Below are positions 686 through 62,233 of a DNA stretch of 64,000 nt, one piece after another (positions within the stretch are counted from its first letter, which is position 1; the number at the start of each line of letters is the position of its first letter). The notes beneath the pieces were generated by a model. That model made no database searches and was not told the origin of the DNA. It worked only from the letters and a program-made list of their open reading frames with translations. This DNA is from an uncultured Acidobacteriota bacterium (GTDB lineage Bacteria; Acidobacteriota; Thermoanaerobaculia; UBA5066; DATFVB01), in contig CAWEYG010000001.1 of assembly GCA_963813155.1 (NCBI GenBank), positions 79,058 to 143,057 on the forward strand, given 5' to 3'. The position numbers and the translations under genes were made by a program.

Positions 686-694
686 GCGATTATT

Positions 695-2611: not shown

Positions 2612-2725
2612 CGGATCGGCGGCGAATTGGCGAGAATCCCAAAAAACACCGGAACTTGTGTGCGGCGCGGCCGGACCCCCAACATATCGTGGATTTCACC
2701 GAAACTGTCTGGTACTCTCCCGGGA

Positions 2726-6666: not shown

Positions 6667-7934
<1,268 letters not shown>

Positions 7935-7938
<4 letters not shown>

Positions 7939-9448: not shown

Positions 9449-9486
9449 GGTTTCGCGTCCGCAAGCTCCTTCTGCTCTCGAGCGCG

Positions 9487-11064
9487 ATGCAAAGCGAACG
9501 GGACCGATCGCGGCAGCTCGCGACGGTCGCCCGCCACATGACGCGGGGACTGCTGCTCGTCGACGGCGAAGGGCGAATCACCCTGATGAACCGCCCCTGC
9601 GCCGAAATCCTCGGGAGCAAGGCCGATCCGAGAGGCCGCGCCGCGCGCCATCTGCTTCGCTCGGCCGGACTTCGCGACTCGGAAGGCCGCGAGCTGGGCG
9701 CGGACTTCAACCCCGTCGCGAAACTCCGCAAACTTCGCGTTCCGTCCCTGCGCGAGATCTACACGGTGGAGACGGAACCCGGCCAGAGAACGAAGATCGA
9801 GATCGTCTCGACGGCGATCGCCGACAAGGGCAAGCGCGCGCGAGGCGCCGTCCTGCTCCTTCGACGAATCGGCGAGGACGCGGAAGCGCAACGCGAGCTC
9901 CACGAGGCGTACGAAAGGCTGATGGAAGTCGATCAGCTCAAGTCCCAATTCCTGTCGACCGTCTCGCACGAGCTCCGCACGCCGCTCAACACGATCATCC
10001 TGCTGTCGCACGTTCTCACCCGCGAGCCCGGCGAGCGACTCCCGACCGGGAAGAAGGAACACGATCTCCAGGTGATCCAGCAGAGCGCGACGACCTTGCT
10101 CCACATGATCAACAACCTGCTCGACCTCGCGAGAATCGAGGCCGGACAGGCCGAGGTCAGGCCGGAGAGCCTCGCGATCGAGCCGTTCCTGAAGGAGACC
10201 CTGGAAATCCTCTCCCCCCAGGCGGAAAGCCGGGGCCTGCGGTTGCGCCTCGCGGCCTCTCCCGCGCTTCCCGAGCGGGCCGCGTTCGACCGCGAAAAGG
10301 TCCGGCAGATCCTCCTGAACCTGATTTCCAACGCAATCAAGTTCACGCCCCGCGGCTCGGTCGAGCTCGCCGTGGCGCCGGCGGGAGCGGGCAACGTCCT
10401 GTCGTTTTCCGTCCGCGACGAGGGGCTCGGGATCCCGCCGGACAAGCTGTCTTTCATCTTCGAGCCGTTCCGCCGGATTTCGCCCGAAGAAGGAGCGACC
10501 GCCGGCTCGGGCCTGGGTCTCTCGATCGTGAAGGAGCTCGTCCGGCTTATGGGCGGAGAGATTTCGGTCGAAAGCCAGCCGGGCAGCGGCTCGACGTTTC
10601 GCGTCCTGCTGCCGATCCTGCCCGCCGCCGAAGACCCTCACGACTCGACCCGCCCGGCGCGCGCCCCCCGGTCGCGTACCCGGGTCCTGGTTGTGGAAGA
10701 CGACGAAAGCTCGCGTTACGCGCTGACCTCCGTGCTCGCGCTCGAGGGGTACGGGGCCGATTCCGCGCGGAACGGGAAAGAGGCCTTTTCGAAGGCGCAA
10801 TCCGGCGGTTACGACGCGATCTTCATGGACATCAGCCTTCCGGACGAGGACGGAACATCGGTCATCGAGAATCTCCGGCGGCGTCCGGAGACGCGGGCCG
10901 TTCCCATCATCGCCCTGACGGGGAAGACCTCCGACGCCGACCGGCGGAAGATCGAGGCCTCCGGCGCCTCCGCCTACCTTTCCAAACCGGTCAACGTCAA
11001 ACGCCTGCTGAAGACCCTTTCCCAGCTCCTGGACGCTCCCCGCGCAGCCGCGAAGCAGGGTTAA
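9487..11064 (+). CDS. PAS-sensor hybrid histidine kinase (PAS + HisKA + HATPase + C-terminal REC)
   Basis: PAS region LLLVDGEGRITLMNRPCAEILG. H-box STVSHELRTPLN. N-box LLNLISNAIKFT. G-boxes DEGLGIP and GSGLGLSIV. C-terminal receiver RVLVVEDDE...IFMDISLPDEDG...KP. Likely continuous with 8699..9448 once the frameshift is corrected. Confidence 0.85.
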   Translation: MQSERDRSRQLATVARHMTRGLLLVDGEGRITLMNRPCAEILGSKADPRGRAARHLLRSAGLRDSEGRELGADFNPVAKLRKLRVPSLREIYTVETEPGQRTKIEIVSTAIADKGKRARGAVLLLRRIGEDAEAQRELHEAYERLMEVDQLKSQFLSTVSHELRTPLNTIILLSHVLTREPGERLPTGKKEHDLQVIQQSATTLLHMINNLLDLARIEAGQAEVRPESLAIEPFLKETLEILSPQAESRGLRLRLAASPALPERAAFDREKVRQILLNLISNAIKFTPRGSVELAVAPAGAGNVLSFSVRDEGLGIPPDKLSFIFEPFRRISPEEGATAGSGLGLSIVKELVRLMGGEISVESQPGSGSTFRVLLPILPAAEDPHDSTRPARAPRSRTRVLVVEDDESSRYALTSVLALEGYGADSARNGKEAFSKAQSGGYDAIFMDISLPDEDGTSVIENLRRRPETRAVPIIALTGKTSDADRRKIEASGASAYLSKPVNVKRLLKTLSQLLDAPRAAAKQG

Positions 11065-26465: not shown

Positions 26466-26840
26466 ATGGTTCAGCCTCGCGAATTCCGGTATTCCGACAT
26501 CCCCTCTGACCCGCGCGAACTTGCGAAGGACTGCGAGATCTCGTTCTTTCGCGCGTCCGGGCCGGGCGGGCAGCATCGAAACAAGACGGAAACGGCTGTC
26601 CGGGTCGTGCACCTGCCCACCGGCGTCATCGCGGCCGCGGTCGAGGAACGCAGCCAGTCTCGCAACCGCGAGCGGGCATTCGAGCGCCTTCGGGAGAAGC
26701 TCATCCGAAAATTGAAGCCGCGAAAGCCGCGCCGGGAAACGAAAGTCCCGCGGTCGGCGAAGGAAAAACGGCTCGAAGCGAAGATCCGGCGGAGCCGGAC
26801 GAAAGAATTGAGGTCTATTCCCCGAGCTTCTCTCGATTGA
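26466..26840 (+). CDS. arfB: alternative ribosome-rescue factor ArfB (peptidyl-tRNA hydrolase, GGQ motif)
   Basis: GPGGQHRNKTETAVRVVHLPTG followed by a basic C-terminal tail (KLKPRKPRRETKVPRSAKEKRLEAKIRRSR). Confidence 0.85.
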   Translation: MVQPREFRYSDIPSDPRELAKDCEISFFRASGPGGQHRNKTETAVRVVHLPTGVIAAAVEERSQSRNRERAFERLREKLIRKLKPRKPRRETKVPRSAKEKRLEAKIRRSRTKELRSIPRASLD

Positions 26841-28176
26841 GCCCGTAGTGCTCGAGCTTCTTGTAGAGGTTCGACCGCGGCGTTTGAATCGTCTCGGCCG
26901 TCCGGGAAACGTTCCAGTTGTTCTCGCGGAGTTTTGCGAGAAGAAATTCGCGCTCCGTGTATTCCTTGAAGTCCGCGAGCGTCGACATGCGCGACGCCTG
27001 CCCGGCGAGCTCCCTCGGCGAAAACTGGGATTCGGAAGGAATTTCCGCGGCCGTGACGGGATCGGCCTCCGTCATGATCAGAACGCGCTCCACGAGATTC
27101 CGGAGCTCGCGCACATTTCCCGGCCAGGATCGCCCGGCCAGGGCGTCGAGCGCGCTCTTGTGGAACGTACGCCGGCGAACGCCGTTGCGCTCCGCGTACA
27201 CGGCGGCGAAATGCTCGACGAGCGGCACCGCGTCCTCCGGCCGTTCGCGCAGGGGGGCGATGTGCAGCGGCACGACGTTCAGGCGAAAATAGAGATCTTC
27301 CCGAAACGATCCCTTTCGGATCTCGTCAACGAGGTTCTTGTTCGTGGCCGCGATCACGCGGACCTTCACTTTCTGAGTCTTCGATTGGCCGACGGGCTCG
27401 ACCTCGCCCTCCTGCAGCACCCTCAGGACTTTCGCCTGGGCGCGAGCCGACATGTCGCCGACCTCGTCCAGAAAGATCGTCCCTCCGTCGGCCTCGACGA
27501 ACTTCCCGATCTGCTTGCGGACCGCTCCCGTGAACGACCCCTTCTCGTGGCCGAACAACTCGGATTCGATGAGCTCCTCGGGAATCGCCGCGCAGTTCAC
27601 CGTCACGAACGGCCCCTGGGACAGCCGCGAGAGCCGCTGGACCTGGCGCGCGAGGAGCTCCTTGCCGGTTCCCGACTCCCCCGTGACGAGAACGGTCGCG
27701 TCGGACGGGGCCGCCCGCGCGACCTGCTCGTTGAGCCTGCGCACGGAGTCGCTCGCCCCGACGAAAGAATCTTCGATCTCGACTCGGCGCTTGAGCCGGA
27801 CGTTCTCGCGGGCCAGATGGTCGCGCGACACCGCGTTCCGAAGAGAGACGAGCAGGCGCTCGCGCTGAAGGGGCTTCTCGAGGAAATCCACCGCGCCTCG
27901 CTTCGTGCACTCGACAGCCGTCGCGATATCTCCGTGCCCGGAGATCATCAGAACCGGTGGAGGATTCTCGAGCCGCTGGATCTCGTCGAGGGCCTCCATC
28001 CCGTCCTTTCCGGGCATCTTGATGTCGAGCAGCACCGCGTCGGGCCGCCGGGCGTCGATTTCCGAAAGCCCGGAGACGGCGTCCGGAGCGGACGCCGTCT
28101 CGTAGCCGTCGTATTCCAGGATCATCTTGATCGCCTGACGCACCGACGCGTCGTCGTCGACGATGAGAACCCGCAT
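26815..28176 (-). CDS. sigma54-dependent response regulator, NtrC/ZraR family (REC + AAA+ + Fis HTH)
   Basis: MRVLIVDDD...LLDIKMPGKDG. GESGTGKE. ESELFGHEKGSFTGA. GGTIFLDEV. C-terminal HTH TAETIQTPRSNLYKKL. The 3' end overlaps arfB convergently by 26 nt. Confidence 0.9.
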   Translation of the reverse strand: MRVLIVDDDASVRQAIKMILEYDGYETASAPDAVSGLSEIDARRPDAVLLDIKMPGKDGMEALDEIQRLENPPPVLMISGHGDIATAVECTKRGAVDFLEKPLQRERLLVSLRNAVSRDHLARENVRLKRRVEIEDSFVGASDSVRRLNEQVARAAPSDATVLVTGESGTGKELLARQVQRLSRLSQGPFVTVNCAAIPEELIESELFGHEKGSFTGAVRKQIGKFVEADGGTIFLDEVGDMSARAQAKVLRVLQEGEVEPVGQSKTQKVKVRVIAATNKNLVDEIRKGSFREDLYFRLNVVPLHIAPLRERPEDAVPLVEHFAAVYAERNGVRRRTFHKSALDALAGRSWPGNVRELRNLVERVLIMTEADPVTAAEIPSESQFSPRELAGQASRMSTLADFKEYTEREFLLAKLRENNWNVSRTAETIQTPRSNLYKKLEHYGLNREKLGE

Positions 28177-28196: not shown

Positions 28197-29744
28197 CTAC
28201 TCGCCGACTTTGACGATCGCGAAGAACGAGAACGGACGCTGGCCGAAGCGCCGCACGTAAAAACGCAGGTAATCGCCCTTCTTCGCGTCGCGGACGACCC
28301 GCGAGAGCTCTTCGGCGGAAGCGACCTTGTGGCCGTTGACTTCGGTGATCACGTCGCCTTCCGCCAGCCCGGCATCGTTCGCCGCCGACACTTCGGAGAC
28401 TCCCGTGACGAGGACGCCCGCGACGCTCGGCTCGATCCGGTAGTACTGGCGCCCCTGCGGCGTCAGGTCCTGGACGGAGAGGCCGATTTTTTCCTTCGCG
28501 CCGCCCTCGTTCTCGGGAGCAGCCGTGTCGTTGGATGCCTGGTCGCCCCGGCGCTCCCCGAGCTCGACGGTGAGGTCCTGCATCCTCCCTCCGCGGTTGA
28601 CGGCGAGGCGCACCCGGGCGCCCGGAGGCCTGCCCGACACGTACGAGATGAGGTCCTGCGTCGTGACGACCTCGCGGTCGTCGACCTTCAGGATGACGTC
28701 GCCGTGCTGAACGCCCGCCTTGTCGGCCGGCTGGCCCGGCTCGACCGACTCCACGAGAGCGCCGTTCATGTCCTTGAGGCCGAACGCTTTCATGTTGTCT
28801 TCGTCGAGGTTGCGGATGTTCACTCCCAGGAAGCCGCGCGTGACCTTGCCCTTCGTCTTGAGCTGGTCGAGGATCGACCGGGCCGTGTTGATCGGCACCG
28901 CGAACCCGATGTTCTGGGCCGGACGGTAAATCGCGGTGTTGATGCCGATGACTTCGCCCTCGAGATCGATGAGCGGCCCGCCCGAGTTGCCGAAGTTGAT
29001 CGCGGCGTCGGTCTGGATGAAATTTTCGAACGAGTTCGTGTTCGGATCCAGCGTCAGGTTGTGCCGGCCTTTGGCCGAGACGACGCCGACGGTCACCGTC
29101 TTGTCGAATGCCCAGGGATCGCCGATCGCCATCACCCAGTCGCCGACGCGAATCTTGTCGGAATCCCCGAGCGAAATCGGCGTGAGGCGCTCCTTCGCGT
29201 CGATCTTGATGAGCGCGATGTCGGTCGCGGGATCGGTGCCCACGACCTTCGCCCGATAGGTGTGCTGGTCGCCGACTTTGACCTCGATTTTCTGACCGCT
29301 CTCGACGACGTGGTTGTTCGTCAGGATGTACCCGTCCTGCGAAATGATGAAGCCGGACCCTCCGGCCTCTTCCTTGTGCTCCTGTTGCTGGTCCTGGCCC
29401 TGCCCCGGACCGCCCTGGCCCGGATGCGGAAATCCGAAGAAGAATTCGAACGGATCCTGTCCGTCTCCTCCTCCAAACGGGTTCTGGCCCCCGGAACGGC
29501 GGCGAGGCCCCTTCACGATGTCGGTCGAAGTGATCGAAACGACCGACGGCAGGGCTTCGGCGGCCACGTCGGAAAAAGATGGCAGGTTCCCGGCCGAGGT
29601 CGCCCGTGTCGGCGCGCTGTGCGGCGACTTCTGAGCCAGCGTCTCCGGGGTCCAGTTCGTCGAACTGGCCAGCACGACTCCGAAAATGATCGCCCCCGCG
29701 ATGAGGGCAAAAAAGGAGAGTTGTCTTTTCGCACTCGCGTTCAT
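28197..29744 (-). CDS. degP: Do/DegP/HtrA-family periplasmic serine endoprotease (trypsin domain + 2 PDZ)
   Basis: Catalytic triad context TNNHVV, DIALIK, GNSGGPL. Two PDZ domains. Signal/TM at the N-terminus. ATG 29744 with GGGGG RBS. The track TTG at 29768 is probably not the start. Confidence 0.9.
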   Translation of the reverse strand: MNASAKRQLSFFALIAGAIIFGVVLASSTNWTPETLAQKSPHSAPTRATSAGNLPSFSDVAAEALPSVVSITSTDIVKGPRRRSGGQNPFGGGDGQDPFEFFFGFPHPGQGGPGQGQDQQQEHKEEAGGSGFIISQDGYILTNNHVVESGQKIEVKVGDQHTYRAKVVGTDPATDIALIKIDAKERLTPISLGDSDKIRVGDWVMAIGDPWAFDKTVTVGVVSAKGRHNLTLDPNTNSFENFIQTDAAINFGNSGGPLIDLEGEVIGINTAIYRPAQNIGFAVPINTARSILDQLKTKGKVTRGFLGVNIRNLDEDNMKAFGLKDMNGALVESVEPGQPADKAGVQHGDVILKVDDREVVTTQDLISYVSGRPPGARVRLAVNRGGRMQDLTVELGERRGDQASNDTAAPENEGGAKEKIGLSVQDLTPQGRQYYRIEPSVAGVLVTGVSEVSAANDAGLAEGDVITEVNGHKVASAEELSRVVRDAKKGDYLRFYVRRFGQRPFSFFAIVKVGE

Positions 29745-29816
29745 CAAGTTTTTCCCCCTACCTTTCAACGGCGCTCAATTCTAGCCCAGCGACTCCGCCG
29801 GCTCGCGCTCTGGAGT

Positions 29817-40588: not shown

Positions 40589-40603
40589 TGGCACGCGCCG
40601 TGC
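40589..40603 (+). promoter_or_regulatory. sigma54 promoter (TGGCAC-N5-gTGCT) upstream of the DUF4398 lipoprotein/OmpA gene pair
   Basis: cTTGGCACgcgccGTGCTc. Perfect -24 element and conserved -12 GC. Lies 37 nt upstream of ATG 40641. Confidence 0.5.
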
Positions 40604-40640
40604 TCATCCCATGGATTGGATTCGAAAGAAGGAGATCTCC

Positions 40641-48604: not shown

Positions 48605-51600
48605 GTGAACAGGGAAAACATGCCTTTTTCGAGACGCGCGAAACTCTGGAGCCACCTGGGGAAGGAACAGCCGATCCGGGCGGAGCTGTACGGACGCGAG
48701 CGTCTGGACGCCGAAGCGGCTCGACTGGCGTCCGCCCACCTCGGCAGCCTTCGGGCGGGGGGGAGAGGCCCGATGCGGGGCCGCCTCGAGGAGAACGACC
48801 GCCAGCTCCGGATGATTCACGCGTCGATCGTCGCGGGGGCCAAGCGCGGCGAGACCATCTCTCCGGCTGCCGAATGGTTCCTCGACAATTTCCATCTCGT
48901 CCTCGACCAGGTCCGCGAAGTCCGTCAGGACTTTCCCGCGCACTACGAGCGGGAGCTTCCGCACCTTACCCGGGGAGAGCTCGGCGGTTACCCGCGCGTC
49001 TACTCGATCGCCACAACGCTCGTCGCCCACACCGACAGCAGCCCCGACATGGAGACGCTCAAGAATTTCCTCGACGCGTACCAGGCGGTCTCTCCGCTGT
49101 CGATCGGCGAGCTGTGGGCGATTGCCGTCGCGCTCCGCGTCGCGCTGATCGAGAACCTCAGGCGCCTCGCCGGCCGCATGGAAGTCGCGCGGCGCGAGCG
49201 CGCAAAGGCCGACGCCCTCACCGAACGGGTGCTGTCGGCGCTCGAAACGGCGACCGGCCTTCCGGAGCGGGAGGCGATCGCCGAAGCCGTGTTGAAGGCT
49301 CCCGAACGGCGAGAGTTGAGAATCAATCAAACGTTTGCCGTGCGCCTCATTCAGCGCCTCCGAGACGTCGATCCGTCGCTCTCGACGGTACACCGGTGGA
49401 TCGAAGAAGGCCTCGCGGCCCAGGGACTCACGGTCGAAAGCGCGGTGCTGGCCGAGCACCAGAGGCAGACGACCGCGCAGGCGACGATCGCGAACATCAT
49501 TTCGAGCATGCGGCTCTTCTCGCAGGCCGCATGGCCGGATTTCGTGGAGTCTGTCAGCGCCGCCGAGCGGGTGCTCGAGGAGGACCCGGCGGGAGCCTAT
49601 CCGCACCAGGATTTCGAGACCCGGGACCGCTACCGGCACGTCCTCGAAGCGCTCGGGAACAGGGATGGCGCGCGCGAGCTGGCCGCCGCGCGCCGCGCCG
49701 TGGAGCTGGCGAGCGAGGGAGCCGCGCCCCGCGAACGCCACGTCGGCCACTACCTCGTGGACGCCGGCCGTCCGATCCTCGAGCGCGAGCTGGGCGTGCG
49801 CCCCGGGCTCGCGGCTGCCACCCGCCGTCTCGTCCTTCGCTCCCCTGCGGCGTTCTACATCGGGTCGATTCTCCTGATCACCGCGGCGATGGAGGCGATT
49901 GCAGGCGCCTACGTCCGGGCCCACGGAGCGGGCTGGACGATGCTCGCCGTGTCTCTCCTCCTGTCCCTGATCCCGGGAACGGAGCTCGCGCTCTCGATCG
50001 TGAATTTTTCCGTCAACTTCCTGATTCCTCCCCGCCGGCTTCCGAAGCTCAAATGGCGCGACGGCATCCCGGAGGACTTCCAGACGCTCGTCGCGGTCCC
50101 GTCTTTTCTCGGCGACGAGGAGGAAATCCGCGAGCTTCTGTCTTCACTCGAAATCCGCTCCTACGCCAACCCCGACCCGAACCTCCGCTTTGCTCTCCTG
50201 ACCGACTTCGGGGACGCGGACACGGAGACACTGCCGGACGAAGACCGGCGTCTTCAGCTGGCCGAGGACGGAATCCGGGATCTCAACTCCCGGGCCTCAT
50301 CGCCCGGGCGATTCTGGCTTCTCCACCGAAAGCGGCTGTGGAACGCGGCGGAGGGGAAGTGGATGGGGTGGGAGCGAAAACGCGGAAAACTGACGGAGCT
50401 CAACCGCCTCCTTCGCGGCCGCGGACCCACGAGTTTCGAGGTCGTGACCGCCGAACCGGCTGCCCTGGCGAAAATCCGGTTCGTTCTCACGCTCGACGCC
50501 GACACGCGGCTTCCCCGGGAGTCCGCGAGCGCGCTCGTGGGGACCCTCGCGCACCCGCTGAACCTTCCGCGGTCGGATGCGAAGACCGGGCGCGTCGTCG
50601 CGGGCTGCTCGATCGTCCAACCGCGCGTCTCCATCACTCCGGAAAGCGCGAATCGCTCTCCGTTCGCCCAGATCTCCTCCGGCCACGCGGGGATCGACCC
50701 CTACACGACCGCCGTCTCCAACGTCTACCAGGACCTCTTCGGCGAGGGCAGCTTCACCGGAAAAGCAATTTACGACGTGGACGCGTTCGAGTCCGCGCTC
50801 GCCGGGCGAATCCCGGAAAACGCGATCCTCTCGCACGACCTGCTCGAGGGCTGTCTCGCCGGCTCGGCTCTCGCAACCGACATCGAGATCTTCGAAGACC
50901 ATCCCTCGTCCTACGACGTCTACACGCGCCGGCAGCACCGCTGGATCCGCGGAGACTGGCAGATCGCCCGGTGGCTCGGCCGCAGTGTGCCGATGGAAAG
51001 AGGAATCGAGGCGAACCCGCTTTCGGCAATTTCCCGATGGAAGATCCTCGACAACTTGAGGCGGAGCCTCCTCGCACCGGCCCTTTTCCTCTGGCTCGCC
51101 GCCGCCTGGCTCTTCCTCCCGGGCTCTCCCTTTTTCTGGACGACTCTCGCGATGTCCGCGATCGCTTTCCCGATCATCTTTCATCTCGCCGAAGGCCTCA
51201 CCATCCACGCCCGGGGCGTTCCCTGGACGAGCCAGTTCTGGAGCGTCTGGGGAGATCTGCTGGACAATTGCGCGCAGTTCGCGCTTCGCGTCGCCTTCCT
51301 TCCCCACCTTGCGGAGGTTTCGATCGACGCCGCCAGCCGGGCCCTTTTCCGGCAGCTGATCTCCCACCGGCGACTCCTGGAGTGGACGACGGCGGCCGCC
51401 GCCGAAAAGGACCGCGTCTCCTCGGTCGCCGGCTACGCAAGGCGAATGGGGAGAAGCTGGGTGGTGTCCGCAGCGCTCGCCGGGGCGATCGTGGCGATCG
51501 CCCCGCGCCACCTGCCGGCCGCCGCCGGGTTCCTCCTCCTCTGGCTGATCTCGCCGGCGCTCGCCGCGGGCGTGAGCCGGCCGATTCGCCGGGAGCGACG

Positions 51601-54600
51601 CGAGCTGTCCGCCGAGGACGTGCTCGAGCTTCGCGAAACCGCTCGCCTGACGTGGAGATTCTTCGAGAAGTTCGCGAACGCGGAAGAGCACGATCTCCCC
51701 CCCGATAACTATCAGGAGGACCCCGAGCCGCGTGTCGCGCACCGGACCTCTCCGACGAACATCGGGTTCTCTCTTTTGTCGGCCGTCGCGGCCTTCGATT
51801 TCGGGTACGTGGGGATACGCGACCTCGTCGAACGCCTCGAACGGACGCTCGGCGTCGTGGAATCGCTCCCGCGGCTTCGCGGGCATCTCTACAACTGGTA
51901 CGACACGACGACCCTCGCACCCCTTCCGCCTCGCTACGTCTCGTCGGTCGACAGCGGAAACCTCGCGGCAAGTCTCATCGCGCTCAAGCAGAGCTGCCTC
52001 GAGCTGGCCGAGAGCTCGCCCCGACCTCCCTGGAGGGACGGGCTCGCCGATCTGATCCGTCTCGTTCAGAAGGAGGTCGATGCGATCCCCGCCTCGGGCG
52101 TTCGGACGGAGGCGATCCCGCTGCGCCAGCTCCGAAATCAGGTGCTCGCGCTCGGAGCGCTGCCCGCCTCGCCGAATGCGCTCGAAAGCGAAGTTCTCGC
52201 CGAAATCGAACAGAGCGGCTCGGCCCTCGAAGACGCCGTGCGGGCGCTCGCCCAGGAGCACGCGGAGATCCCGCTCGCCCAGCTGCTCGGCCTCCTCGGC
52301 GACGTGGCGCGGCAGGCCCGGTCTCTCGCGCGCGATTCCGAAGGCCCCGCCGACGCGCCGGCGATCGAACAGCGGCTCCGGGGGATCGCGAATCGCGCGC
52401 AAAAATTCGTGGACGAGACAGACTTCTCGTTTCTCTTCGACGGGGAAAGAAAGGTCTTTTCGATCGGCTGGAACGCGCAGATGGAGCGTCTGGACAAGTC
52501 GTACTACGACCTCCTGATCTCCGAGGCTCGGCTGACGAGCTTCTGCGCGATCGCCAAGGGCGACGTGCCGACGGAGCACTGGTTTCGCCTGCAGAGGCCG
52601 TTCGCCGTTTCTTTCAAGCGTCCGGTCCTTCTGTCCTGGTCGGGAAGCATGTTCGAGTACCTGATGCCCCTGATCCTCCTCCGGTCGTATCCCGACACGC
52701 TGCTGCACGAGACGTGCACAGCGGCGGTCGAGGCGCAGGTGCAGTACGTCCGGGGAAAGAAGATTCCCTGGGGCGCGTCGGAATCCGCCTACAACGCCCG
52801 GGACCTGCACCTCAACTACCAGTACGGCCCGTTCGGCGTGCCGGAGCTCGGCCTTCGCCGCGTTGCGCCGGACGAGCTCGTGATCTCTCCCTACTCGACA
52901 TTCCTCGCGCTGCTCGCGGACCCTTCGGGAGCGCCGGAAAACCTTCGTCGGCTCGCGGCCGAGGGAGCGCGCGGAGACTTCGGCTTCTACGAGTCGATCG
53001 ACTACACGCCGAGGCGCCTGCCCCCCGGCTCGACACGCTCCGTCGTCAAAGCGTTCATGGCCCACCACCAGGGGATGATCCTTCTCTCGATCCACAACGC
53101 CGTCCTCGCGGATCGCATGCGAAACCGGTTTCACTCGGACCCGGCAGTCCAGGCCACCGAGCTGCTGCTGCAGGAGCGGATCCCGCGCAACACGTCCGCG
53201 CTCGCCGGTTCGATCGTCGCCCAGGTGGCGGCTGGCCGGGTCGTCCGCGAGGAAATCGCGATCCCGACCCGGCGGTTCGATTCGCCCGATTCCTCGACGC
53301 CGCGCAGCCAGATTCTCTCGAACGGTTCCTACTCCGTGCTCGTGACGGTGGCCGGTTCCGGATTTTCCCAACGGGGCGGCCTGGCGGTTACCCGGTGGCG
53401 TGACGACCCCACGTCCGATTCCTGGGGCTCCTGGATCTACCTGCGCGACGTGAGAAGCGGCCAGCGATGGTCGGCAGGGCATCAGCCGACGCTCCGGCGC
53501 GCGAAGAGATACGAGGCGAAGTTCTCCGAGCACAAGGCTGAATTCCTGCGCATCGACGAGGGCATCGAAACGCGCATGGAGGTGATCGTCTCCGCGCAGG
53601 CGGACGTGGAGATCCGGCGAGTCACGCTGACGAACACCTCGACGAGGGCGCGCGACGAGCGGGACATCGAAGTGACGAGCTACGCCGAAATCGTCCTCGC
53701 GCCGCAGGCTGCCGACATCGCCCATCCCGCCTTTTCGAAGATGTTCCTCGAGACGGAGTGGACTGGCGGGAGGCTGCTCTGCAGCCGCCGGCCGCGCTCG
53801 CCGGAGGACAAGCCGGCGTTCGCCGCGCACGCGATGGCGGTGTCGGGCACGAGCCTCGGGGGCGTGCAGCACGAGACCGACCGCGCCCGCTTCCTCGGCC
53901 GCGGGCGGTCTCCCCGCGCCCCGGCCGTGCTCGTCGAGGATCGCCCGCTCTCCGACACGACGGGCGCAGTTCTCGACCCGATCTTCTCCCTGCGCCATCG
54001 CGTTCGCGTGCCGGCGGGCCACAGCGTCCAGATCGCGTTCGTGACCTCGGCGGCCGACACGAGGGAAGATGCGCTCGCCCTCGTCGACCGATTCAAGGAC
54101 CCCGCGCTGTTTGACCGCGAATCCTCTCTCGCGTGGATGCGGTCGCAGGTGCTGTTGAGGCACCTGAACATCACGAGCGACGAGGCCCAGCTGTTCCAGC
54201 GCCTCGCGACCCGCGCCTTCTACAACGACCCGAGCCTGCGGCCCGCCTCGGAGCTCCTGGCCCGCAACACGGGCTCGGCCCGAGCGCTCTGGGCCCACGG
54301 CATCTCCGGGGACCTTCCGATCGTGCTCGTCCGAATCGCCGACATGGAGGAGATCGATCTCGCGCGGCAGCTCCTGCGGGCGCACGAATACTGGAGCCTC
54401 AAGGGGATCACGGTCGATCTCGCGATCGTCAACGAGAGCGGGTCCGCGTATCTTCAGCCGCTCCAGGACCAGCTCAATGCGATCCTGGCGGCGTCTCCTT
54501 CGCGCCTCTTCGCGGGCAAGGCCGGGAGGAATCTTTCTTCGCAGCGCGGACCAGATTCCCGAGCAGGAGCGAATCGTGCTGGAGACGGCCGCCCGGGCGG

Positions 54601-57149
54601 TCCTCGTCGGGTCGAAGGGAACTCTCTCCGATCAGGTCCAGCGGATTCCTTCGAGCGAGATCCTGCCGGCCGCATTCGCGTCGACCGCACCGATCACGCC
54701 GCCGGCCGGCAACCCTCCCCTCGAGACCGGCAAGCTCTCGTTCTTCAATGGAATCGGCGGCTTCTCCGCGGACAGGCGCGAATACGTGATCGTTCTCCTC
54801 GAGAATCAGTACACCCCTTCGCCGTGGTCCAACGTGGTGTCGAACCCGTCTTTCGGCTTTCTCGTCACCGAATCCGGCTCGGGCTGCACCTGGGCGGAAA
54901 ACAGCCACGAAAACCGCCTCACGCCCTGGTCCAACGACCCCGTGACGGATCCGTCCGGCGAGGCAATCTACCTGCGCGACGAAGAGAGCGGCGAAGTGTG
55001 GACGCCGACGCCCCTTCCGATTCGGGACGCCGATCCGTATGTCTGCCGCCACGGCCAGGGCTATTCTCGATTCCTCCACCGGAGAAGCGACATCGAAAGC
55101 GACCTCACGATGTTCGTCCCGGTCGCCGACCCCGTGAAGGTCCTCCGTCTTCGCCTGACGAACCGGTCGGCGTCGCCCCGCAAGATTTCGGCGACGTTCT
55201 ACGCCGAGTGGGTTCTCGGGTCGGAACGGTCCGCGAGCGCGAGATTCGTCGTGACGGAGCCCGACGCGGACCTGCAGGCGATCTTCGCCCGAAACTCCTT
55301 CAACGCCGATTTCGCCTCGCGCACGGCATTCGCGCGAGCGAGCGGAGCGCTGATGTCCTGGACCGCCGATCGCCGCGAGTTTCTGGGGCGAAACGGCCAC
55401 CTGTCGGACCCCGCCGGGCTCCGGCGCGCAAGCCTGTCCGGCCGGAGCGGAGCGGCGCTCGATCCGTGCGCGGCCCTCCAGACCGCCGTCGATCTCGCTC
55501 CGGGAGAGTCGCGCGACGTCGTTTTCCTGCTCGGGGAAACGGACGGCCGCCCGGCCGCGGCCGGGCTGATCCGCCGCTACGGCGAGCCGGGCGGAGCGGA
55601 GACGGCGCTGCGCGAGAGCACCGCGGCGTGGGACAGGCTGCTCGGCGCGGTCCAGGTGCGGACCCCCGACCTCGCCCTCGACCTGATGGTCAATCGCTGG
55701 CTCCTCTATCAAACGCTGTCGAGCCGGGTCTGGGGACGGACCGGCTTCTACCAGTCGAGCGGCGGGTTCGGCTTCCGGGACCAGCTCCAGGACGTCACGG
55801 CGCTGCTGGCGTGTGCGCCGGAGCAGGCGCGCGAGCAGATCGAACGGGCGGCGTCCCGCCAGTTCCCGGAGGGGGACGTGCAGCACTGGTGGCACCCGCC
55901 GTCCGGGCGCGGCATCCGCTCCCGATGTTCCGACGATCTTCTCTGGCTCCCGTTCGTCGCGGCGCATTTCGCCGAGGTCACCGGCGATTCGACGATCTGG
56001 GATGCGGACGCGCCGTTTCTGGACGCGGCGAAGCTCGGCTCGGACGAGGTCGAGGCCTATCAGGAGCCGCGCGTGTCCGCCGAGCACGCGACGATCTTCG
56101 AGCACTGCGCGCGCGCGATCGACCGCAGCCTCGTCGTCGGAGAGCACGGCCTCCCGCTGATCGGCAGCGGGGACTGGAATGACGGCTACAACCATGTCGG
56201 GATCGGCGGCAAGGGCGAGAGCGTCTGGCTCGGATGGTTCCTCCTCGCCGTCCTCCAGAGCTTCCAGCCTCTCTGCGAGGCTCGGGGCGACAAAGGCCGA
56301 GCCGACCGGTATCGCAAGCACGCCGCCCGGCTCAAGTCCGCGATCGAAGCCCACGGATGGGACGGCGACTGGTATCGCCGGGCCTATTTCGACGACGGCG
56401 CGACGCTCGGCTCCGCCGCCGACGCCGAGTGCCGCATCGATTCGTTGTCGCAGACGTGGGCCGTCCTCTCCGGAGCGGGAGACAAGACGCGCACGGCGCG
56501 CGCGATGGTGGCCGTCCACGAATACCTCGTGCGCCGGGAGGACGGGCTCGTGCTGCTGCTGGCGCCGCCGTTCGACCGTTCGCCCCGCTATCCCGGATAC
56601 ATCCAGGGCTATCCCCCCGGAGTCCGGGAGAACGGGGGCCAGTACACCCACGCCGCGGCCTGGGCGGTGATGGCGTTCGCCCAGCTCGGCGACGGCGACC
56701 TCGCCTCCGAGCTCTTCTCGTACCTGAACCCGATCTCTCCGACGAGCACCCGGGCGGGCCTTCACAAATACAAGGTCGAGCCCTATGTGACCGCGGGCGA
56801 CGTCTACTCCGTACCGCCGCTGACGGGCCGCGGGGGATGGACCTGGTACACCGGATCGTCCGGATGGCTGTACCGGGCCGGCGTCGAATCGATCCTCGGC
56901 TTCCGGATCGAGGGAAAGCACTTCACGATCGACCCCTGCATCCCGCGGAGATGGCCCGGCTTCGAGATGGAATACCGCGACGGCGACACGCTGTACAAGA
57001 TCCGCGTCGAGAACCCGAAGGGCGTCTGCCGCGGCGTCGAGAGCGTCGAGGTGGACGGAGTCGCCGTTCCCGCGAAGCGGGTCTGCCGCGAGCACGACGC
57101 GAAGACCCACGAAGTCGTCGTGAGGCTGGGGTCCGGGTCCGCCTCTTGA
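48605..57149 (+). CDS. cyclic beta-1,2-glucan synthase-like giant glycosyltransferase/glycoside phosphorylase (about 2,850 aa; NdvB/ChvB/Cgs architecture); +1 frameshift at about 54524-54529
   Basis: N-terminal cytoplasmic region. GT domain with DxD-like TLDADTRLPRES and QHRWIRGDWQ. Multiple TM segments. Two GH94-like (cellobiose phosphorylase-like) alpha/alpha-toroid regions (GWDGDWYRRAYFDDG, GGWTWYTGSSGWLYR). The frames 48605..56182 and 54477..57149 join at LFAGKAG/GIFLRSADQ. Start is GTG 48605 or ATG 48620. Confidence 0.8.
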
Positions 57150-57174: not shown

Positions 57175-57423
57175 ATGGAAATGACGACGATCAGCGCGAC
57201 GAAGGCGAGGGCCGAGCTCTATCGGCTGCTCGACGAAGCCGCGGAAAGCCACGAACCAATAGAGATCACCGGCAAGCGCCACAACGGGGTCCTCGTCTCG
57301 GAGGAAGACTGGCGCGCGATCCAGGAGACGCTCTATCTCGTCTCGATTCCCGGGATGCGCGCGTCGATCCGCAGGGGCTTGAAAGCTCCGCTCTCGAAGA
57401 CCTCCGAGAAGCCCGGTTGGTAG
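57175..57423 (+). CDS. yefM: type II antitoxin, Phd/YefM family
   Basis: MEMTTISATKARAELYRLLDEAAESHEPIEITGKRHNGVLVSEEDWRAIQETLYL, canonical YefM N-domain. Confidence 0.9.
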   Translation: MEMTTISATKARAELYRLLDEAAESHEPIEITGKRHNGVLVSEEDWRAIQETLYLVSIPGMRASIRRGLKAPLSKTSEKPGW

Positions 57424-57689
57424 AGGGGCCCTGGCGGGTCGTCTTCACGAGTCAGGCTCAGAAGGACGCCCGAAAAATCGCCCAATCGGGACTTCGCTCG
57501 AAAGCCGAAGGACTGATCGAGATTCTCCGGAAGAATCCCCGACAGACCCCTCCCCCGTTCGAGAAGCTCGTTGGAGACCTCGCCGGCGCCTGCTCGCGCC
57601 GAATCAACCTCCAGCACCGGCTCGTCTACCAAATCCTCGACAAACAGAGGACCGTGAAGGTGATCCGCATGTGGACGCACTACGAGTAG
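57417..57689 (+). CDS. yoeB: type II toxin YoeB/Txe (RelE/ParE superfamily mRNA interferase)
   Basis: RINLQHRLVYQILDKQRTVKVIRMWTHYE C-terminus typical of YoeB. TTG start overlaps the yefM stop. Confidence 0.85.
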   Translation: MVEGPWRVVFTSQAQKDARKIAQSGLRSKAEGLIEILRKNPRQTPPPFEKLVGDLAGACSRRINLQHRLVYQILDKQRTVKVIRMWTHYE

Positions 57690-57782: not shown

Positions 57783-58863
57783 ATGAGCGCCGAAGGCGCG
57801 AAGGGTGAGGGTGCCCTGCGAATCGCGGTCGTTCCGGGCGACGGCATCGGCGTCGACGTCACGAAAGAGGCGCTGAAAGTCCTGAACGCCGCCGCGAAAG
57901 CCGGGAAGCTCGACGTCGCGACGACCGAGTTCCCGTGGAGCGCCGATCACTACCTGAAGACCGGCGAATCGCTGCCGAAAGGCGCGTTCGACGACCTGCG
58001 CGCGAACTACGACGCGATCTTCATGGGCGCCTTCGGAGACCCGCGGGTCCCCGACATGGCCCACGCGCGCGACATCCTGCTCGGCGCCCGGTTCGTTCTC
58101 GACCTGTACGTCAACGCGCGTCCGATCCGGTGCCTCGACGATCGCCTCAACCCGCTGAAGGGCTTTCGGGCCGCCGACATCGACTTCGTGATCTTCCGCG
58201 AGAACACGGAGGGCTCCTACGCGGGGACGGGCGGCAACTTCAAGAAGGGGACGCCCGACGAGGTCGCGCTCCAGGAGGACATCTCCACGCGCAAAGGCGT
58301 CGAGCGGATCGTCCGCCACGCCTTCGAGTTCGCGAAGACCCGCGGCAAGAAGAAAGTCTGCATGTCGGACAAGAGCAACGCGATGCGCTTCGTCGGAGAC
58401 CTCTGGCAGCGGACGTTCTGGGAAATCGCGAAGGAGTACCCCACGATCGAGGCGTCGCACCTCTACGTCGACGCGCTCGTCATGCAGATGGTCAAGGACC
58501 CGACGCAGTTCGAGGTCGTCGTCACGAACAACATGTTCGGAGACATCACGACGGACCTCGGCGCCGCTCTCCAGGGCGGCCTCGGAATGGCGGCCTCCGG
58601 AAATCTCCATCCGGGGCAAGATCTCCATGTTCGAACCCGTCCACGGCTCCGCGCCGAAATACGCGGGCACGGGAAAGGCGAACCCGTTCGGAGCGATCCT
58701 GACCGTGGCAATGATGCTCGAGCACCTCGGAGCCGCGGAGTCCGCGCGAGCGATCGAATCGGCCGTCCAGACGTGCGTCGAACAGAAACGGTGCACGGCG
58801 GACATCGGAGGCTCCCGAACGACTTCCCAGGCCGGCGACGCCGTCGTTTCGCTGCTCGGTTGA
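57783..58863 (+). CDS. isocitrate/isopropylmalate dehydrogenase family protein (LeuB/tartrate dehydrogenase-like); +1 frameshift at G4 run 58613-58616
   Basis: LRIAVVPGDGIG. NLFGDITTDLGAALQGGLGMAASGNL, then in the next frame ISMFEPVHGSAPKYAGTGKANPFGAILTVAMMLEHLG. The frame-0 tail after 58616 is Arg-rich nonsense. Confidence 0.8.
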
Positions 58864-58905
58864 ATGCCGCGCCCCTTCCTTAACGGTTCTTAAGCAAGTA
58901 CCAAT

Positions 58906-58922
58906 CCGGCACCTCCCTTGCA
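58906..58922 (+). promoter_or_regulatory. sigma54 promoter (cGGCAC-N5-TTGCA)
   Basis: ccGGCACctcccTTGCAcc, near-consensus -24/-12, 53 nt upstream of ATG 58976. Confidence 0.5.
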
Positions 58923-58975
58923 CCGCCCCCGGGACTTTCAACCCCGGGTCCGCCCCGGAGAAAGGGAGCAGAAAG

Positions 58976-60100
58976 ATGAACCGGACATTAACGAGAACGC
59001 GCCATCGAGGAGCGGGGATCGCTTTCGCCGCGCTGCTGACGCTCGCGGCCGGGACGGCGTCCGCGCAGCGTTACATCCAGCACAACCTCGTCTCGGACGT
59101 GCCGTCGCTCGCGCCTCGCACGGATCCGAATCTCGTCAACGCGTGGGGAATCGCGCACAGCCCCACCGGCCCGATCTGGATCGCGAACAACGGCAGCGGG
59201 ACTTCGACCGTCTACGACGAGAACGGACTCCCCGTTCCGAACAAGACCGCGCCGCTCGTCGTCGCGATTCCCGAAGGGACGGCCAACACGGAGGGCGGCG
59301 TCCCGACCGGAACGGTTTTCAACGGGACCGGGCAGTTCGTCGTTTCGGCGAATGGAAAGAGCGGCTCGGCCGTTTTCCTCTTCGCCGGCGAGGACGGGAC
59401 GATCTCCGGCTGGAACCCGGGGGTGAACCCGACGCAGGCGATTCTCGGGGTCGACAACTCGACGAGCGGAGCGGTGCACAAGGGAATTGCCCTCGGAGCG
59501 ATGGGCTCGAACAATCTCGTGTACGTGACGAACTTCAATTCCGGTAATGTCGATGCGTACGATTCGAGCTTCGCGTTCGCGTTCTCTTTCACGGATTCGT
59601 CCCTCACGGCCCTGGGTTACGCGCCATTCGGCATCGCGAACATCAACGGAAACCTGTTCGTGAGCTTTGCCCAGCAGGACGCCGACAAACACGACGATGT
59701 GGCCGGCCCGGGTCACGGCTATGTCGACGAGTTCGACACGAGCGGAACACTGATCAAGCAGTTCGCCGCGCAGGGAACTCTCAATTCGCCGTGGGGAATG
59801 ACGCTCGCGCCGGACAACTTCGGCCATTTCTCCGGGGCGTTGCTCGTCGGAAACTTCGGGGACGGCCGGATCAACTCTTTCGACCCGTCGACCGGGGCAT
59901 TCCTCGGGCAGATGGCAAATCCGAACGGCTCGCCGCTCGCGATCGACGGGCTCTGGGGCCTCGCGTTCGGGAACGGTACGCAAGGAGGAGGCGCGGCCAA
60001 CCAGCTCTACTTCACGGCCGGGCCCGAGGGCGAAAGCCACGGCCTCTTCGGAAGAATTCAGGCGATTCCGGGACTCGCGCAGATGAACGGACGCAACTGA
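58976..60100 (+). CDS. secreted repeat-containing hypothetical protein (possibly TIGR03118-like beta-propeller family)
   Basis: Signal peptide MNRTLTRTRHRGAGIAFAALLTLAAGTASA. Repeated Gly/Asn-rich beta-strand motifs (NAWGIA, GSGTSTVYDENG, NSPWGMTLAP, GLWGLAFGNG). RBS GGAGAAAGGGAG. Confidence 0.6.
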   Translation: MNRTLTRTRHRGAGIAFAALLTLAAGTASAQRYIQHNLVSDVPSLAPRTDPNLVNAWGIAHSPTGPIWIANNGSGTSTVYDENGLPVPNKTAPLVVAIPEGTANTEGGVPTGTVFNGTGQFVVSANGKSGSAVFLFAGEDGTISGWNPGVNPTQAILGVDNSTSGAVHKGIALGAMGSNNLVYVTNFNSGNVDAYDSSFAFAFSFTDSSLTALGYAPFGIANINGNLFVSFAQQDADKHDDVAGPGHGYVDEFDTSGTLIKQFAAQGTLNSPWGMTLAPDNFGHFSGALLVGNFGDGRINSFDPSTGAFLGQMANPNGSPLAIDGLWGLAFGNGTQGGGAANQLYFTAGPEGESHGLFGRIQAIPGLAQMNGRN

Positions 60101-60169
60101 AGATCCTCACCCCGTCCTCACGGACACCCCTCTCCACAAGTTGTGGAGAGGGGCCGGGGGTGAGGAAAA

Positions 60170-62233
60170 TCAGTTCACGTCTTCCGGGGCTTCCTGGTTC
60201 TCGTCTTCCGGCTGAAACGCCCGGGCCGGACTCGGCTTTTCTTCCGGCTCGAGCTCGACGACCCATTTCTCGTAGGTCTCCCCCGGCAGCTCGGAGACGA
60301 ACCTCGACGATTCCAGGAGAACGTCCATCGAATAGCGGTCGCGCGCCAGCATCGGGTACGTGAGCGCGAGCTCGTTTTTCGCGCGAGTGCAGGCGACGTA
60401 GAACAGCCGCCGTTCCTCCTCGAGCCCCTCGGCGGTCGCGGCCGCGCGGAAATTCGGGAACCGGCCGTCGGACAGGCCGATCACGGCGACCCGGCTCCAT
60501 TCGAGGCCCTTCGCCTGGTGGATCGAGGAGAGGACGACTTTCTCGTCCTCCGGCAGTCCCGCGACCGTGTCCTCGCCCGAGAGCTCGTTGTAGAGGGAAA
60601 CCTCGTCGAGGAACTTCGGGAGCGAGTCGTACCCGCCCGCGAACTGGGCGAGCTGCTCCAGGTCGTCCAGCCGCGCGTCGCCGTTTGGAAATTTCGCCCG
60701 CGCGAAATCGCGGTAGACCTGCTCGACGATCAGGCGAATCGATTCTGCCGGCGAATTGCGAACCGACGGCGTGTCCAGCTTCGCGAAGAGGGAGCGGCAT
60801 GGCTCGAGCGCCGCTTCCACGCCGCGCCCGTTGATGGATCGCCCGCCGCGCTGGAAGGCTTCGAGCGGATGCGCCGTGCCGCCGATCGCTTCCCAGATCT
60901 GCGTCGCGGTCCGCTCGCCGATCCGGGGAAACACCTTCAAGGCCCGTTTCCAGGAGATCTCGTCTTTCGGGTTCGCGAGGACGCGGAGGAACGCGAGGAC
61001 GTCCTTGACGTGGCGCTGCTCGAAGAACCGCATGCCCGAGCGGATCTCGTACGGGATTCCCCGCCGCGTGAGCTCCAGCTGGAGCTCCATCGCCTGGTAG
61101 TGGGAGCGGTACAGCACCGCGCAGTCGGAAAGGCGGTCTCCTTCGTCCCGCCATTCCAGCAGGCGCTGAGCAACGAACCGGGCCTGGTCGAACGCGTCGG
61201 GCAGCGGGACGACGGCCGGGAGCACGCCGCTGTCCCGGACGGCCGAGAGCTCTTTCGGAAACTGCCTTTCGTTCTTCGCGATGGACGCGTTCGCGAGGCG
61301 GAGGATCTCGGGGGTCGAGCGGTAGTTCGTCGTCAGGCGAAACACCCGGGCCTCGGGATGGCGCTCCGGAAAGCCGATGATGTTGTCGAACGAAGCTCCC
61401 CGAAACGCGTAGATCGATTGCGCGTCGTCTCCGACGACCGAGATGTTCCCGTGGCCCCTCGCCATTCCGTCGACGATCTCCCCCTGGAGCCGGTTCGTGT
61501 CCTGGTATTCGTCCACGAGGACGTGGGCAAACCGCTTCGAGAGGGCCTCGCCCGAGGGGGTCGAGAGCAGCACCTTCCAGTGCAGGAGAAGATCGTCGTA
61601 GTCGCACGCCCTCGCCGCCTTTTTGCGCTCGAGGTACCGCTGAAAAACCGAAACGATCTCCTCCTGGAGCGGAAGGAAGTGGGGGGCGCGCTCGGCGAGG
61701 ACCTCCGACAGCTTGCGCTCCGTGTTGATCGTGAAGGAGTACAGGTCGAGGAGCACGTCCCCTTTCGGAAAGCGCTTTTCGAGCGTCGGGATCTTCAGGT
61801 CGGAGGTCGCCGTCTCCAGCATCTCTCGGGCGTCCTCCGCGTCGAGGATCGAGAAATTCGGAGGGAGCCCGATCTGCTCGCCGTACTGGCGCAGCAGCCG
61901 GTTTCCGACCGAATGGAACGTGCCGCCCGCCATCTTGCGCGTGTCGATCGTCAGCAGCGCTTCGACGCGGCGCATCATTTCCCGCGCGGCCTTGTTCGTA
62001 AATGTCAGGAGGAGGATTTTCGCCGGGTCGACTCCCGATTCGATGAGCCTCGACACCCGGTACACGAGAGTCCGGGTCTTTCCCGATCCCGCCCCCGCGA
62101 TCACGAGGACCGGGCCGTTTCCCGCGAAGACGACCTCCTTCTGCTCCGCGTTGAGCTCCCGGTCGTAATCGATCCGGTAGTTCACGGAGGGGACCGGAGT
62201 CCGAAGGACGTACTTCTTCATGCGACCGGCCAT
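60170..62233 (-). CDS. UvrD/PcrA/Rep-family ATP-dependent DNA helicase with acidic C-terminal tail
   Basis: Motif I GAGSGKTRTLVYRV. Motif II VLVDEYQDTN. Motif IV TNYRS. Motif VI VACTRAKNELALTYP. Start is ATG 62233 or 62221. Confidence 0.9.
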   Translation of the reverse strand: MAGRMKKYVLRTPVPSVNYRIDYDRELNAEQKEVVFAGNGPVLVIAGAGSGKTRTLVYRVSRLIESGVDPAKILLLTFTNKAAREMMRRVEALLTIDTRKMAGGTFHSVGNRLLRQYGEQIGLPPNFSILDAEDAREMLETATSDLKIPTLEKRFPKGDVLLDLYSFTINTERKLSEVLAERAPHFLPLQEEIVSVFQRYLERKKAARACDYDDLLLHWKVLLSTPSGEALSKRFAHVLVDEYQDTNRLQGEIVDGMARGHGNISVVGDDAQSIYAFRGASFDNIIGFPERHPEARVFRLTTNYRSTPEILRLANASIAKNERQFPKELSAVRDSGVLPAVVPLPDAFDQARFVAQRLLEWRDEGDRLSDCAVLYRSHYQAMELQLELTRRGIPYEIRSGMRFFEQRHVKDVLAFLRVLANPKDEISWKRALKVFPRIGERTATQIWEAIGGTAHPLEAFQRGGRSINGRGVEAALEPCRSLFAKLDTPSVRNSPAESIRLIVEQVYRDFARAKFPNGDARLDDLEQLAQFAGGYDSLPKFLDEVSLYNELSGEDTVAGLPEDEKVVLSSIHQAKGLEWSRVAVIGLSDGRFPNFRAAATAEGLEEERRLFYVACTRAKNELALTYPMLARDRYSMDVLLESSRFVSELPGETYEKWVVELEPEEKPSPARAFQPEDENQEAPEDVN

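Follow-up and report, generated by a model that had tools for sequence, protein, structure and literature searches.

Results

The locus and its neighbourhood

Within the window (the whole stretch of DNA that was analysed, 64 kb in length), the gene for a 374-aa protein of the TIGR03118 family is preceded by non-coding DNA that extends from the stop codon of an Iso_dh gene (58863) to the ATG at 58976, and this interval holds a sigma54-type motif on the same (+) strand as the gene. The features of the locus are, in order of position:

58879..58897, + strand: conserved AT-rich dyad or direct-repeat block, CTTAACGGTTCTTAAGCAA (from a profile of 12 distinct orthologous sequences)
58907..58922, + strand: sigma54 (-24/-12) promoter (direct reading and comparative conservation)
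58933..58975, + strand: putative 5' leader of ~43 nt (start site placed by the usual -12 spacing)
58976..60100, + strand: TIGR03118-family gene, 374 aa (NCBIfam profile match)
58976-59065, + strand: predicted Sec signal peptide, residues 1-30 (sequence reading, cleavage between ASA and Q)
60095..60175, no strand assigned: nested inverted repeat between the convergent stops of the TIGR03118 gene (60100) and uvrD (60170)

The convergent gene downstream encodes a helicase of the UvrD/PcrA type, as an earlier sequence-only reading of this DNA had surmised (UvrD-like). That reading had also judged the context to be accessory-looking, a view contradicted by the orthologous loci (numbered L001 onwards; see below), in which the synteny recurs for L001 and L166 and partly for L002, L004 and L167. 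L001 repeats the order GH94 glucan synthase, Iso_dh, TIGR03118, UvrD (-); L166 repeats Iso_dh, TIGR03118, UvrD (-); the downstream neighbour in L002 is likewise UvrD; and in L004 (whose protein, P0009, is named by its source as coming from a Thermoanaerobaculia MAG, the ground for our taxonomic placement of the bacterium) and L167 an Iso_dh gene is found nearby, in L004 accompanied by GH94, with CitMHS directly upstream of the TIGR03118 gene and no UvrD downstream. Judged by gene order, the locus is a stretch of conserved chromosomal synteny with only small toxin-antitoxin insertions. Clustering of 2,396 flanking ORFs from ~164 loci revealed neither a conserved partner gene nor an adjacent regulator, no neighbour being present in more than 11 loci.

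In the window, a Phd/YefM antitoxin and YoeB/Txe toxin pair (57175-57689, + strand) is inserted between GH94 and Iso_dh; L001 has no genes between these two and carries instead a PIN-Phd pair between uvrD and an MFS transporter gene. Toxin-antitoxin modules of this kind account for the variation in a region that is conserved in other respects.

The upstream IMDH-family (Iso_dh) gene had been described as frameshifted, and comparison with the intact L001 orthologue indeed places one extra base beside a G-run near 58621-58625. A second frameshift, at ~54480, splits a GH94/cyclic-glucan-synthase-like gene into overlapping ORFs (48605-56182 and 54477-57149), the L001 homologue of which is called as one 2840-aa product. 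With two frameshifts within ~5 kb of each other, assembly error at homopolymers is as plausible a cause as (recent) pseudogenisation. Near the start of the window, an ORF of 1995 aa (227-6214, + strand) has an SMC_N match that begins only at residue 837, and its long N-terminal part, for which there is no domain match, may be an open-frame artefact of GC-rich DNA.

The gene encodes a predicted secreted propeller of a large family

The 374-aa protein matches the NCBIfam model TIGR03118, the family that had been guessed from the letters, with a score of 380.6 bits (cutoff 79.95; E = 5.7e-114) and over profile positions 1-335 of 336, and this is its sole NCBIfam match. The model itself is of the type 'hypoth_equivalog_domain', a conserved hypothetical with the short name PEPCTERM_chp_1. 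In Pfam no family was found for the protein at E <= 0.01, the gathering thresholds of NHL (PF01436) and SGL (PF08450) not being reached, and a profile match to the TRIM71 NHL domain in the PDB was marginal (E = 8e-4). At the level of fold, the structural model of residues ~31-365 and its fold matches reveal a six-bladed NHL/SMP30-like beta-propeller, with six four-stranded blades arranged round a central axis and strong similarity to solved NHL/SGL propellers, in keeping with the beta-propeller-like character proposed for the protein beforehand. Its fold neighbours are six-bladed propellers of the NHL, SMP30-gluconolactonase-LRE and DFPase types, among them the NHL domain of TRIM2 (7qrv), Cj1041c (22gu), two lactonases (2p4o and 8djf) and PAL (3fw0), although in sequence the 374-aa protein is only 13-19% identical to the solved NHL/SGL propellers.

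The N-terminus (MNRTLTRTRHRGAGIAFAALLTLAAGTASA, followed after the predicted cleavage point by QRY) comprises a basic n-region, a hydrophobic core and a c-region, with neither a lipobox cysteine nor a twin-arginine. We infer from this signal-peptide-like sequence that the protein is exported by the Sec route, as the sequence-only reading had held in calling it secreted.

The same reading had called the protein an orphan, which it is not: at least 7,982 relatives from many phyla (7,982 of 8,000 scored candidates) reach E <= 1e-10. The window protein is 44-57% identical to members from many phyla, and one relative, encoded on an 883-kb contig, is 90% identical. Among 166 family proteins, 52 positions are at least 95% identical, including D50, N55, N72, N116, E139, K169, D207, D240 and E353, and 15 of the conserved residues are polar or aromatic, a pattern that would suit a metal or active site. 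On the grounds of fold neighbours and conservation, we consider the protein a putative secreted metal-dependent hydrolase or lyase-like enzyme. Structurally the clade to which it belongs is no different from the rest of the TIGR03118 family; what sets this clade apart is the module of sigma54 site and dyad described below, and the conserved position beside Iso_dh and uvrD. In the literature searched, TIGR03118 is mentioned only in passing, and we found nothing on sigma54 regulation of the family.

A sigma54-type site of modest significance when taken alone

The published -24/-12 consensus for sigma54 (RpoN) is TGGCACG-N4-TTGCW. In the focal site, a -24 element CGGCAC (58907-58912) is followed by the spacer CTCCC (58913-58917) and a -12 element TTGCA (58918-58922), and this sequence matches 10 of the 11 scored positions of the consensus, with exactly 10 nt between GG (58908-9) and GC (58920-1), the spacing typical of sigma54 promoters. 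Direct reading confirms that the ATG of the 374-aa ORF begins 53 nt past the last base of the motif, the distance that had been given earlier; the interval given with it, 58906-58922, contains the motif and one surplus base at its 5' end. The exact core GGCAC-N5-TTGCW occurs once in the 64 kb of the window, both strands considered, where 0.06 occurrences are expected, and at least one such core was present in 6 of 100 shuffled windows. When up to two mismatches to TGGCACG-N4-TTGCW are allowed, the window holds four matches against 4.4 expected, and since these matches are at chance level, the focal site taken alone is only mildly significant. Nor is it the best match in the window, as had been claimed, for it is tied by a site on the opposite strand (TGGCATCGGCGTTGCT, 29832-29817) with an equal number of mismatches. 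The decisive support for the motif is comparative.

The -24/-12 motif is conserved in orthologous loci

Orthologous loci were retrieved by exact-protein look-up (L001-L004 and L165-L167) and by a scan of reference genomes and metagenomes (L005-L164). Thirteen loci with at least 63% protein identity (the window, L001-L004, L085-L090, L166 and L167) provided 12 distinct upstream sequences. All 13 (63-100% protein identity) carry GGCA[CT]-N5-TTGCA at 49-56 nt ahead of the start codon, with no antisense-strand match and none in coding sequence. A GG-anchored profile shows that GGCA and TTGCA never vary across the 13 loci while the 5-nt spacer and the flanks do, and that constraint near the promoter is limited to these two strings and a single further block upstream; the position before the GG is C, G or A in this clade (clade A), not the consensus T. 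Absence of the motif from orthologous loci had been named beforehand as the observation that would speak against a sigma54-type promoter, and the opposite is found. That the motif is a functionless chance match, to which the frequency of exact cores in the shuffled windows might lend some credit, is refuted by its retention in every one of these loci at a fixed distance from the gene while the flanks have diverged, and we give this explanation practically no weight.

A less trivial alternative is that the likeness to sigma54 promoters is coincidental, the GGCA-N6-TTGCA string and the AT-rich block upstream of it being ordinary transcription factor operators or an RNA leader element, and the gene depending for its transcription on a housekeeping or ECF sigma factor, or on read-through from Iso_dh. 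It is true that no terminator separates Iso_dh from the TIGR03118 gene in the window or in L001, that no EBP gene or remote UAS is nearby, and that sigma54-like strings are at chance frequency when two mismatches are allowed. However, the invariant positions coincide exactly with those specific to sigma54 (the GG, the GC, their 10-nt separation and the TTGCA) in 12 distinct sequences with the spacer left free, whereas a constraint on a palindrome or on RNA structure would give a different signature; the footprint corresponds to what would be expected for sigma54 recognition rather than for a palindromic operator or an RNA structure. Moreover, a consensus scan of 58600-60300 found no sigma70-like promoter hexamers, no Rfam family matches the region, and in several of the loci another gene, or a divergent one, lies upstream. 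In L004 and L167 the gene directly upstream (CitMHS) is divergent, and therefore read-through cannot supply transcription of the TIGR03118 gene there. Thus, with no sigma70-like promoter and with a divergent upstream gene in some relatives, the gene needs a promoter of its own. We regard a coincidental likeness as distinctly improbable, and the sigma54 promoter as the preferred reading.

Outside this clade the motif is rare. For 156 family members of less than 60% identity, good -24/-12 matches are near background (14 sense versus 6 antisense in 22 kb); the module is absent from L165 (59% identity), and ~150 more distant TIGR03118 members from many phyla, including Actinomycetota, are without such a sigma54 motif. 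To our knowledge, Actinomycetota have no sigma54. Beyond clade A, sites resembling -24/-12 promoters are found only in clade B (L124, L144, L149 and L150) and possibly in clade C (L133, L142 and L158). Since the ~150 distant members lack the motif, family-wide sigma54 control is ruled out, and sigma54 control of TIGR03118 genes is a trait of lineages rather than of the family.

The three clade C loci share a conserved TGG-N9-CTTGCA some 92-93 nt upstream of their TIGR03118 start codons and have no CTTAAG block. This motif suggests that several soil lineages acquired or retained sigma54 control of their TIGR03118 genes, with differing upstream elements.

A conserved AT-rich dyad lies upstream of the -24 element

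The block upstream of the -24 element, on which the sequence-only reading is silent, is the most distinctive feature of the focal promoter. In the anchored profile of the 12 distinct orthologous sequences it has the consensus aTtAa-N5-cTT.ag.AA between variable flanks, and the element (A/C)TTAA-N5-CTTNAGNAA is as conserved as the -24/-12 site itself. In the window the block admits two readings, a pair of TTAA-type half-sites spaced by one helical turn or a dyad, CTTAA-N6-TTAAG, and counted from the putative start site it covers about -54 to -36. Its register is fixed: 12 of the 13 loci have the first TTAA 28 nt upstream of the -24 GG and the other has it at 29 nt, and the block lies ~12 nt upstream of the -24 element. 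The window contains a single match to MTTAA-N5-YTTNAR, where 0.02 are expected.

The same block precedes the -24/-12 site in three clade B loci (L144, L149 and L150), and in L124 as well with a longer gap, the arrangement being CTAAG/CTTAAG-N4/5-CTTAA(G), then ~12 nt, then GGCA-N6-TTGCW; the clade B proteins are ~45% identical to the window protein. When a regular expression for the composite of dyad and -24/-12 site was run on both strands over all fetched loci and the whole window, 2.40 Mb altogether, it found 14 distinct sites, every one upstream of a TIGR03118 gene (14/14) at 50-124 nt from the start codon, and no off-target site. As the expression had been derived from clade A, its 11 clade A sites are circular; the three clade B sites are independent, and with the lack of off-target sites they therefore provide independent support for the composite module. 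In the DNA scanned, the module is thus specific to TIGR03118 genes. The block is absent from the other sigma54-type site of the window (29832-29817), which argues against the block being a general component of this genome's sigma54 promoters.

The AT-rich dyad is a candidate site at which a regulator or an architectural protein might bind. An architectural role, by an IHF/HU-type bend or an UP-like contact of the alpha-CTD, might aid the sigma54-holoenzyme at a -24 element that lacks the consensus T, and would accord with an AT-rich block in a GC-rich genome, with its two A/T clusters 10 bp apart, and with its rigid register to the core promoter at about -54 to -36, which is where UP elements lie. 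For sigma54 promoters such as Pu, the literature considers both UP-like elements and IHF (PMC3900584, PMC2709558). However, specific bases are conserved beyond AT content (C at -44, T at -43/-42), CTTAAG is repeated in both clade A and clade B, the second sigma54-type site has no such block, and the exclusive association of the composite with TIGR03118 genes points to a gene-specific factor; an architectural role strikes us as the less likely of the two. Inspected by eye on both strands, the block is a poor match to the IHF consensus WATCAA-N4-TTR, and an IHF site was rejected.

The conserved G/C positions, the exclusivity of the element and its absence from the other sigma54 site lead us to favour, with some reserve, a site for a sequence-specific regulator over an architectural or UP-like element. 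A more definite proposal, which we offer as a conjecture, is that the CTTAAG-N4-CTTAAG-type dyad could be the site of a regulator dedicated to TIGR03118 genes in Acidobacteriota, either a promoter-proximal EBP or a repressor or co-activator that gates a sigma54 promoter served by an EBP acting independently of DNA binding.

Sigma54 machinery in the window

The window encodes two NtrC-family EBPs with Sigma54_activat domains and GSFTGA loops, and their presence suggests that the organism uses sigma54; no match to the RpoN box, and hence no rpoN, was found within the 64 kb. An EBP gene does not adjoin the TIGR03118 gene in any locus examined, and a conserved, conventional remote UAS was not found upstream of the TIGR03118 promoters. 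Ahead of the promoter, most loci have too little intergenic DNA to accommodate a classical UAS, and the promoter-proximal dyad is the sole conserved upstream element.

The two EBP genes lie elsewhere in the window. The second sigma54-type site (TGGCATCGGCGTTGCT) is intergenic and lies ~70 nt upstream of a gene for an HtrA-like Trypsin_2/PDZ protease (28197-29768, - strand), which is followed by one of the EBP genes (26815-28176, - strand); these two genes may form an autoregulated operon of the envelope-stress type. The other EBP (6667-8451, - strand) consists of REC, Sigma54_activat and AAA lid domains, with no HTH_8 at E <= 1e-4, and is adjoined by a divergent gene for a hybrid histidine kinase (8878-11064, + strand). 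Speculatively, the lack of a DNA-binding domain might enable such an EBP to act at promoters that have no UAS, of which the focal one is an example. A further string, TGGCACGCGCCGTGCT (40589-40604, + strand), has one mismatch to the extended sigma54 consensus, located in the TTGC of the -12 element, and falls where long ORFs cover both strands.

The leader and the end of the transcript

The usual spacing from the -12 element would put the transcription start near 58933 and give the leader of ~43 nt listed above. A Shine-Dalgarno sequence, AAGGGAG, is present at 58962-58968, 7 nt before the ATG, and is abutted by a GC hairpin with arms at 58944-58948 and 58954-58958 that is extended by pairing of 58935-58939 with 58960-58964. 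The leader fold, at -14.4 kcal/mol (z = -0.41), is not thermodynamically exceptional. All 11 orthologous leaders that were folded have a hairpin near the Shine-Dalgarno sequence, formed by differing arms (CCGGG/CCCGG, CCCGC/GCGGG, GCCCGCG/CGCGGGC, TTCGGA/TCCGAA), and RNAalifold retained only 4 pairs, with essentially no covariation term. The hairpin is a suggestive feature, seen in folds of the individual sequences. An Rfam scan of 58700-60300 returned no meaningful RNA family, the hits being a weak match to P17 and a match to mir-3099 well below the gathering score, the latter caused by the hairpin at 60095..60175.

This hairpin is the nested inverted repeat between the convergent stop codons, with perfect inner arms of 13 nt (CCCCTCTCCACAA at 60127-60139 and TTGTGGAGAGGGG at 60141-60153), outer arms of 19 nt and no T-run. 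A consensus scan found no canonical intrinsic terminator there, and the repeat is probably a bidirectional transcript-end hairpin or a REP-like element.

Discussion

Comparison with known sigma54 systems

Akin to canonical sigma54 promoters, the focal site has its GG and GC 10 nt apart, matches GGCAC and TTGCA, is followed by a leader of ~40-50 nt and resides in a genome that encodes EBPs. As opposed to them, it has no consensus T before the GG, no recognisable remote UAS and no adjacent activator gene, and in the focal clade a conserved element keeps a constant distance of 12 nt from the -24 element, on its upstream side.

A second comparison is invited by the name of the family model. PEP-CTERM genes of Proteobacteria are single-gene, sigma54-driven operons for exported proteins, associated with PrsK, PrsR and PrsT, and are preceded by the PEP-CTERM box, whose motif 1, known from Proteobacteria only, comprises 17 nt ending in TTTACA and lies ~63 nt (32-92 nt) upstream of the sigma54 site, which is itself 71 +/- 38 nt from the start codon (Haft et al., 2006; PMC1569441). 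More broadly, a comparative study calls sigma54 a central controller of the bacterial exterior (PMC3162934). The focal unit resembles the proteobacterial arrangement in being a single-gene operon for an exported protein, with a family model named after PEP-CTERM, and in its bipartite layout of a sigma54 site and an upstream motif specific to a class of genes; the distance of 49-56 nt from sigma54 site to start codon in the focal clade is also similar. It differs in phylum, in the upstream motif (CTTAAG-type, not TTTACA), in the spacing of this motif from the sigma54 site (12 nt versus ~63 nt), in a protein without a PEP-CTERM tail and in having no PrsR-grade regulator in the window.

These differences bear on whether the gene could belong to a PEP-CTERM/exosortase system and be controlled by PrsK/PrsR through a PEP-CTERM box, for which the short name of the model, the single-gene sigma54 operons of Proteobacteria and the full-length similarity of both window EBPs to PrsR might be invoked. 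However, the protein has no PEP-CTERM sorting domain (TIGR02595), its sole NCBIfam match being TIGR03118 and its C-terminus reading ...AIPGLAQMNGRN; none of the window's frames contains a [VIL]PEP[SAGT] string; TTTACA (motif 1) is absent from 58800-58906; and both EBPs score below the PrsR cutoff (TIGR02915; 380.5 and 348.9 versus 502.6 bits). Control by PrsR and the PEP-CTERM box is largely refuted by the missing tail, the missing TTTACA and the sub-cutoff EBPs, and we hold it to be very improbable. The focal module is lineage-restricted and distinct from the proteobacterial PEP-CTERM box.

A model for the focal promoter

In light of the conservation of the site, we are confident, short of certainty, that it is a functional sigma54 promoter, from which a Thermoanaerobaculia-related bacterium (Acidobacteriota) would produce a tightly gated, activator-dependent monocistronic mRNA for an exported six-bladed propeller of the TIGR03118 family. 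Sigma54-RNA polymerase would bind the GG (-24) and GC (-12) at 58907-58922 as a closed complex, and transcription would start near 58933 only once an AAA+ EBP, encoded elsewhere in the genome, remodels this complex; if transcription depends on such remodelling, the TIGR03118 gene would therefore be silent unless a specific signal is present. The dyad 12 nt upstream of the -24 element would act as a dedicated cis-regulatory site, most likely for a sequence-specific regulator, which may be the activator itself working at unusually close range, or a co-regulator or repressor; an architectural or UP-like function is less likely. The leader hairpin beside the Shine-Dalgarno sequence may stabilise the mRNA.

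The focal promoter belongs to a well-known class and is of standard type, a solid but fairly ordinary regulatory feature, and general concepts are unchanged by our result. We know of few characterised sigma54 promoters from Acidobacteriota, and the present one adds a well-footprinted example. The dyad module is of modest novelty and of practical value toward the function of TIGR03118, a very large and highly conserved family of secreted propellers of soil and sediment bacteria on which there is almost no literature. If the dyad does serve a dedicated regulator, it would constitute a new bipartite module that parallels the proteobacterial PEP-CTERM box in function but is unrelated to it, and phylogenetic profiling of the module could reveal that regulator and hint at what TIGR03118 proteins do. 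Sigma54 control in one acidobacterial lineage, with a gene-specific element common to two distant clades, offers an experimental handle on the family: by phylogenetic profiling or DNA-affinity capture, the cis-module could lead to the regulator, to the signal and to the conditions under which the protein is needed.
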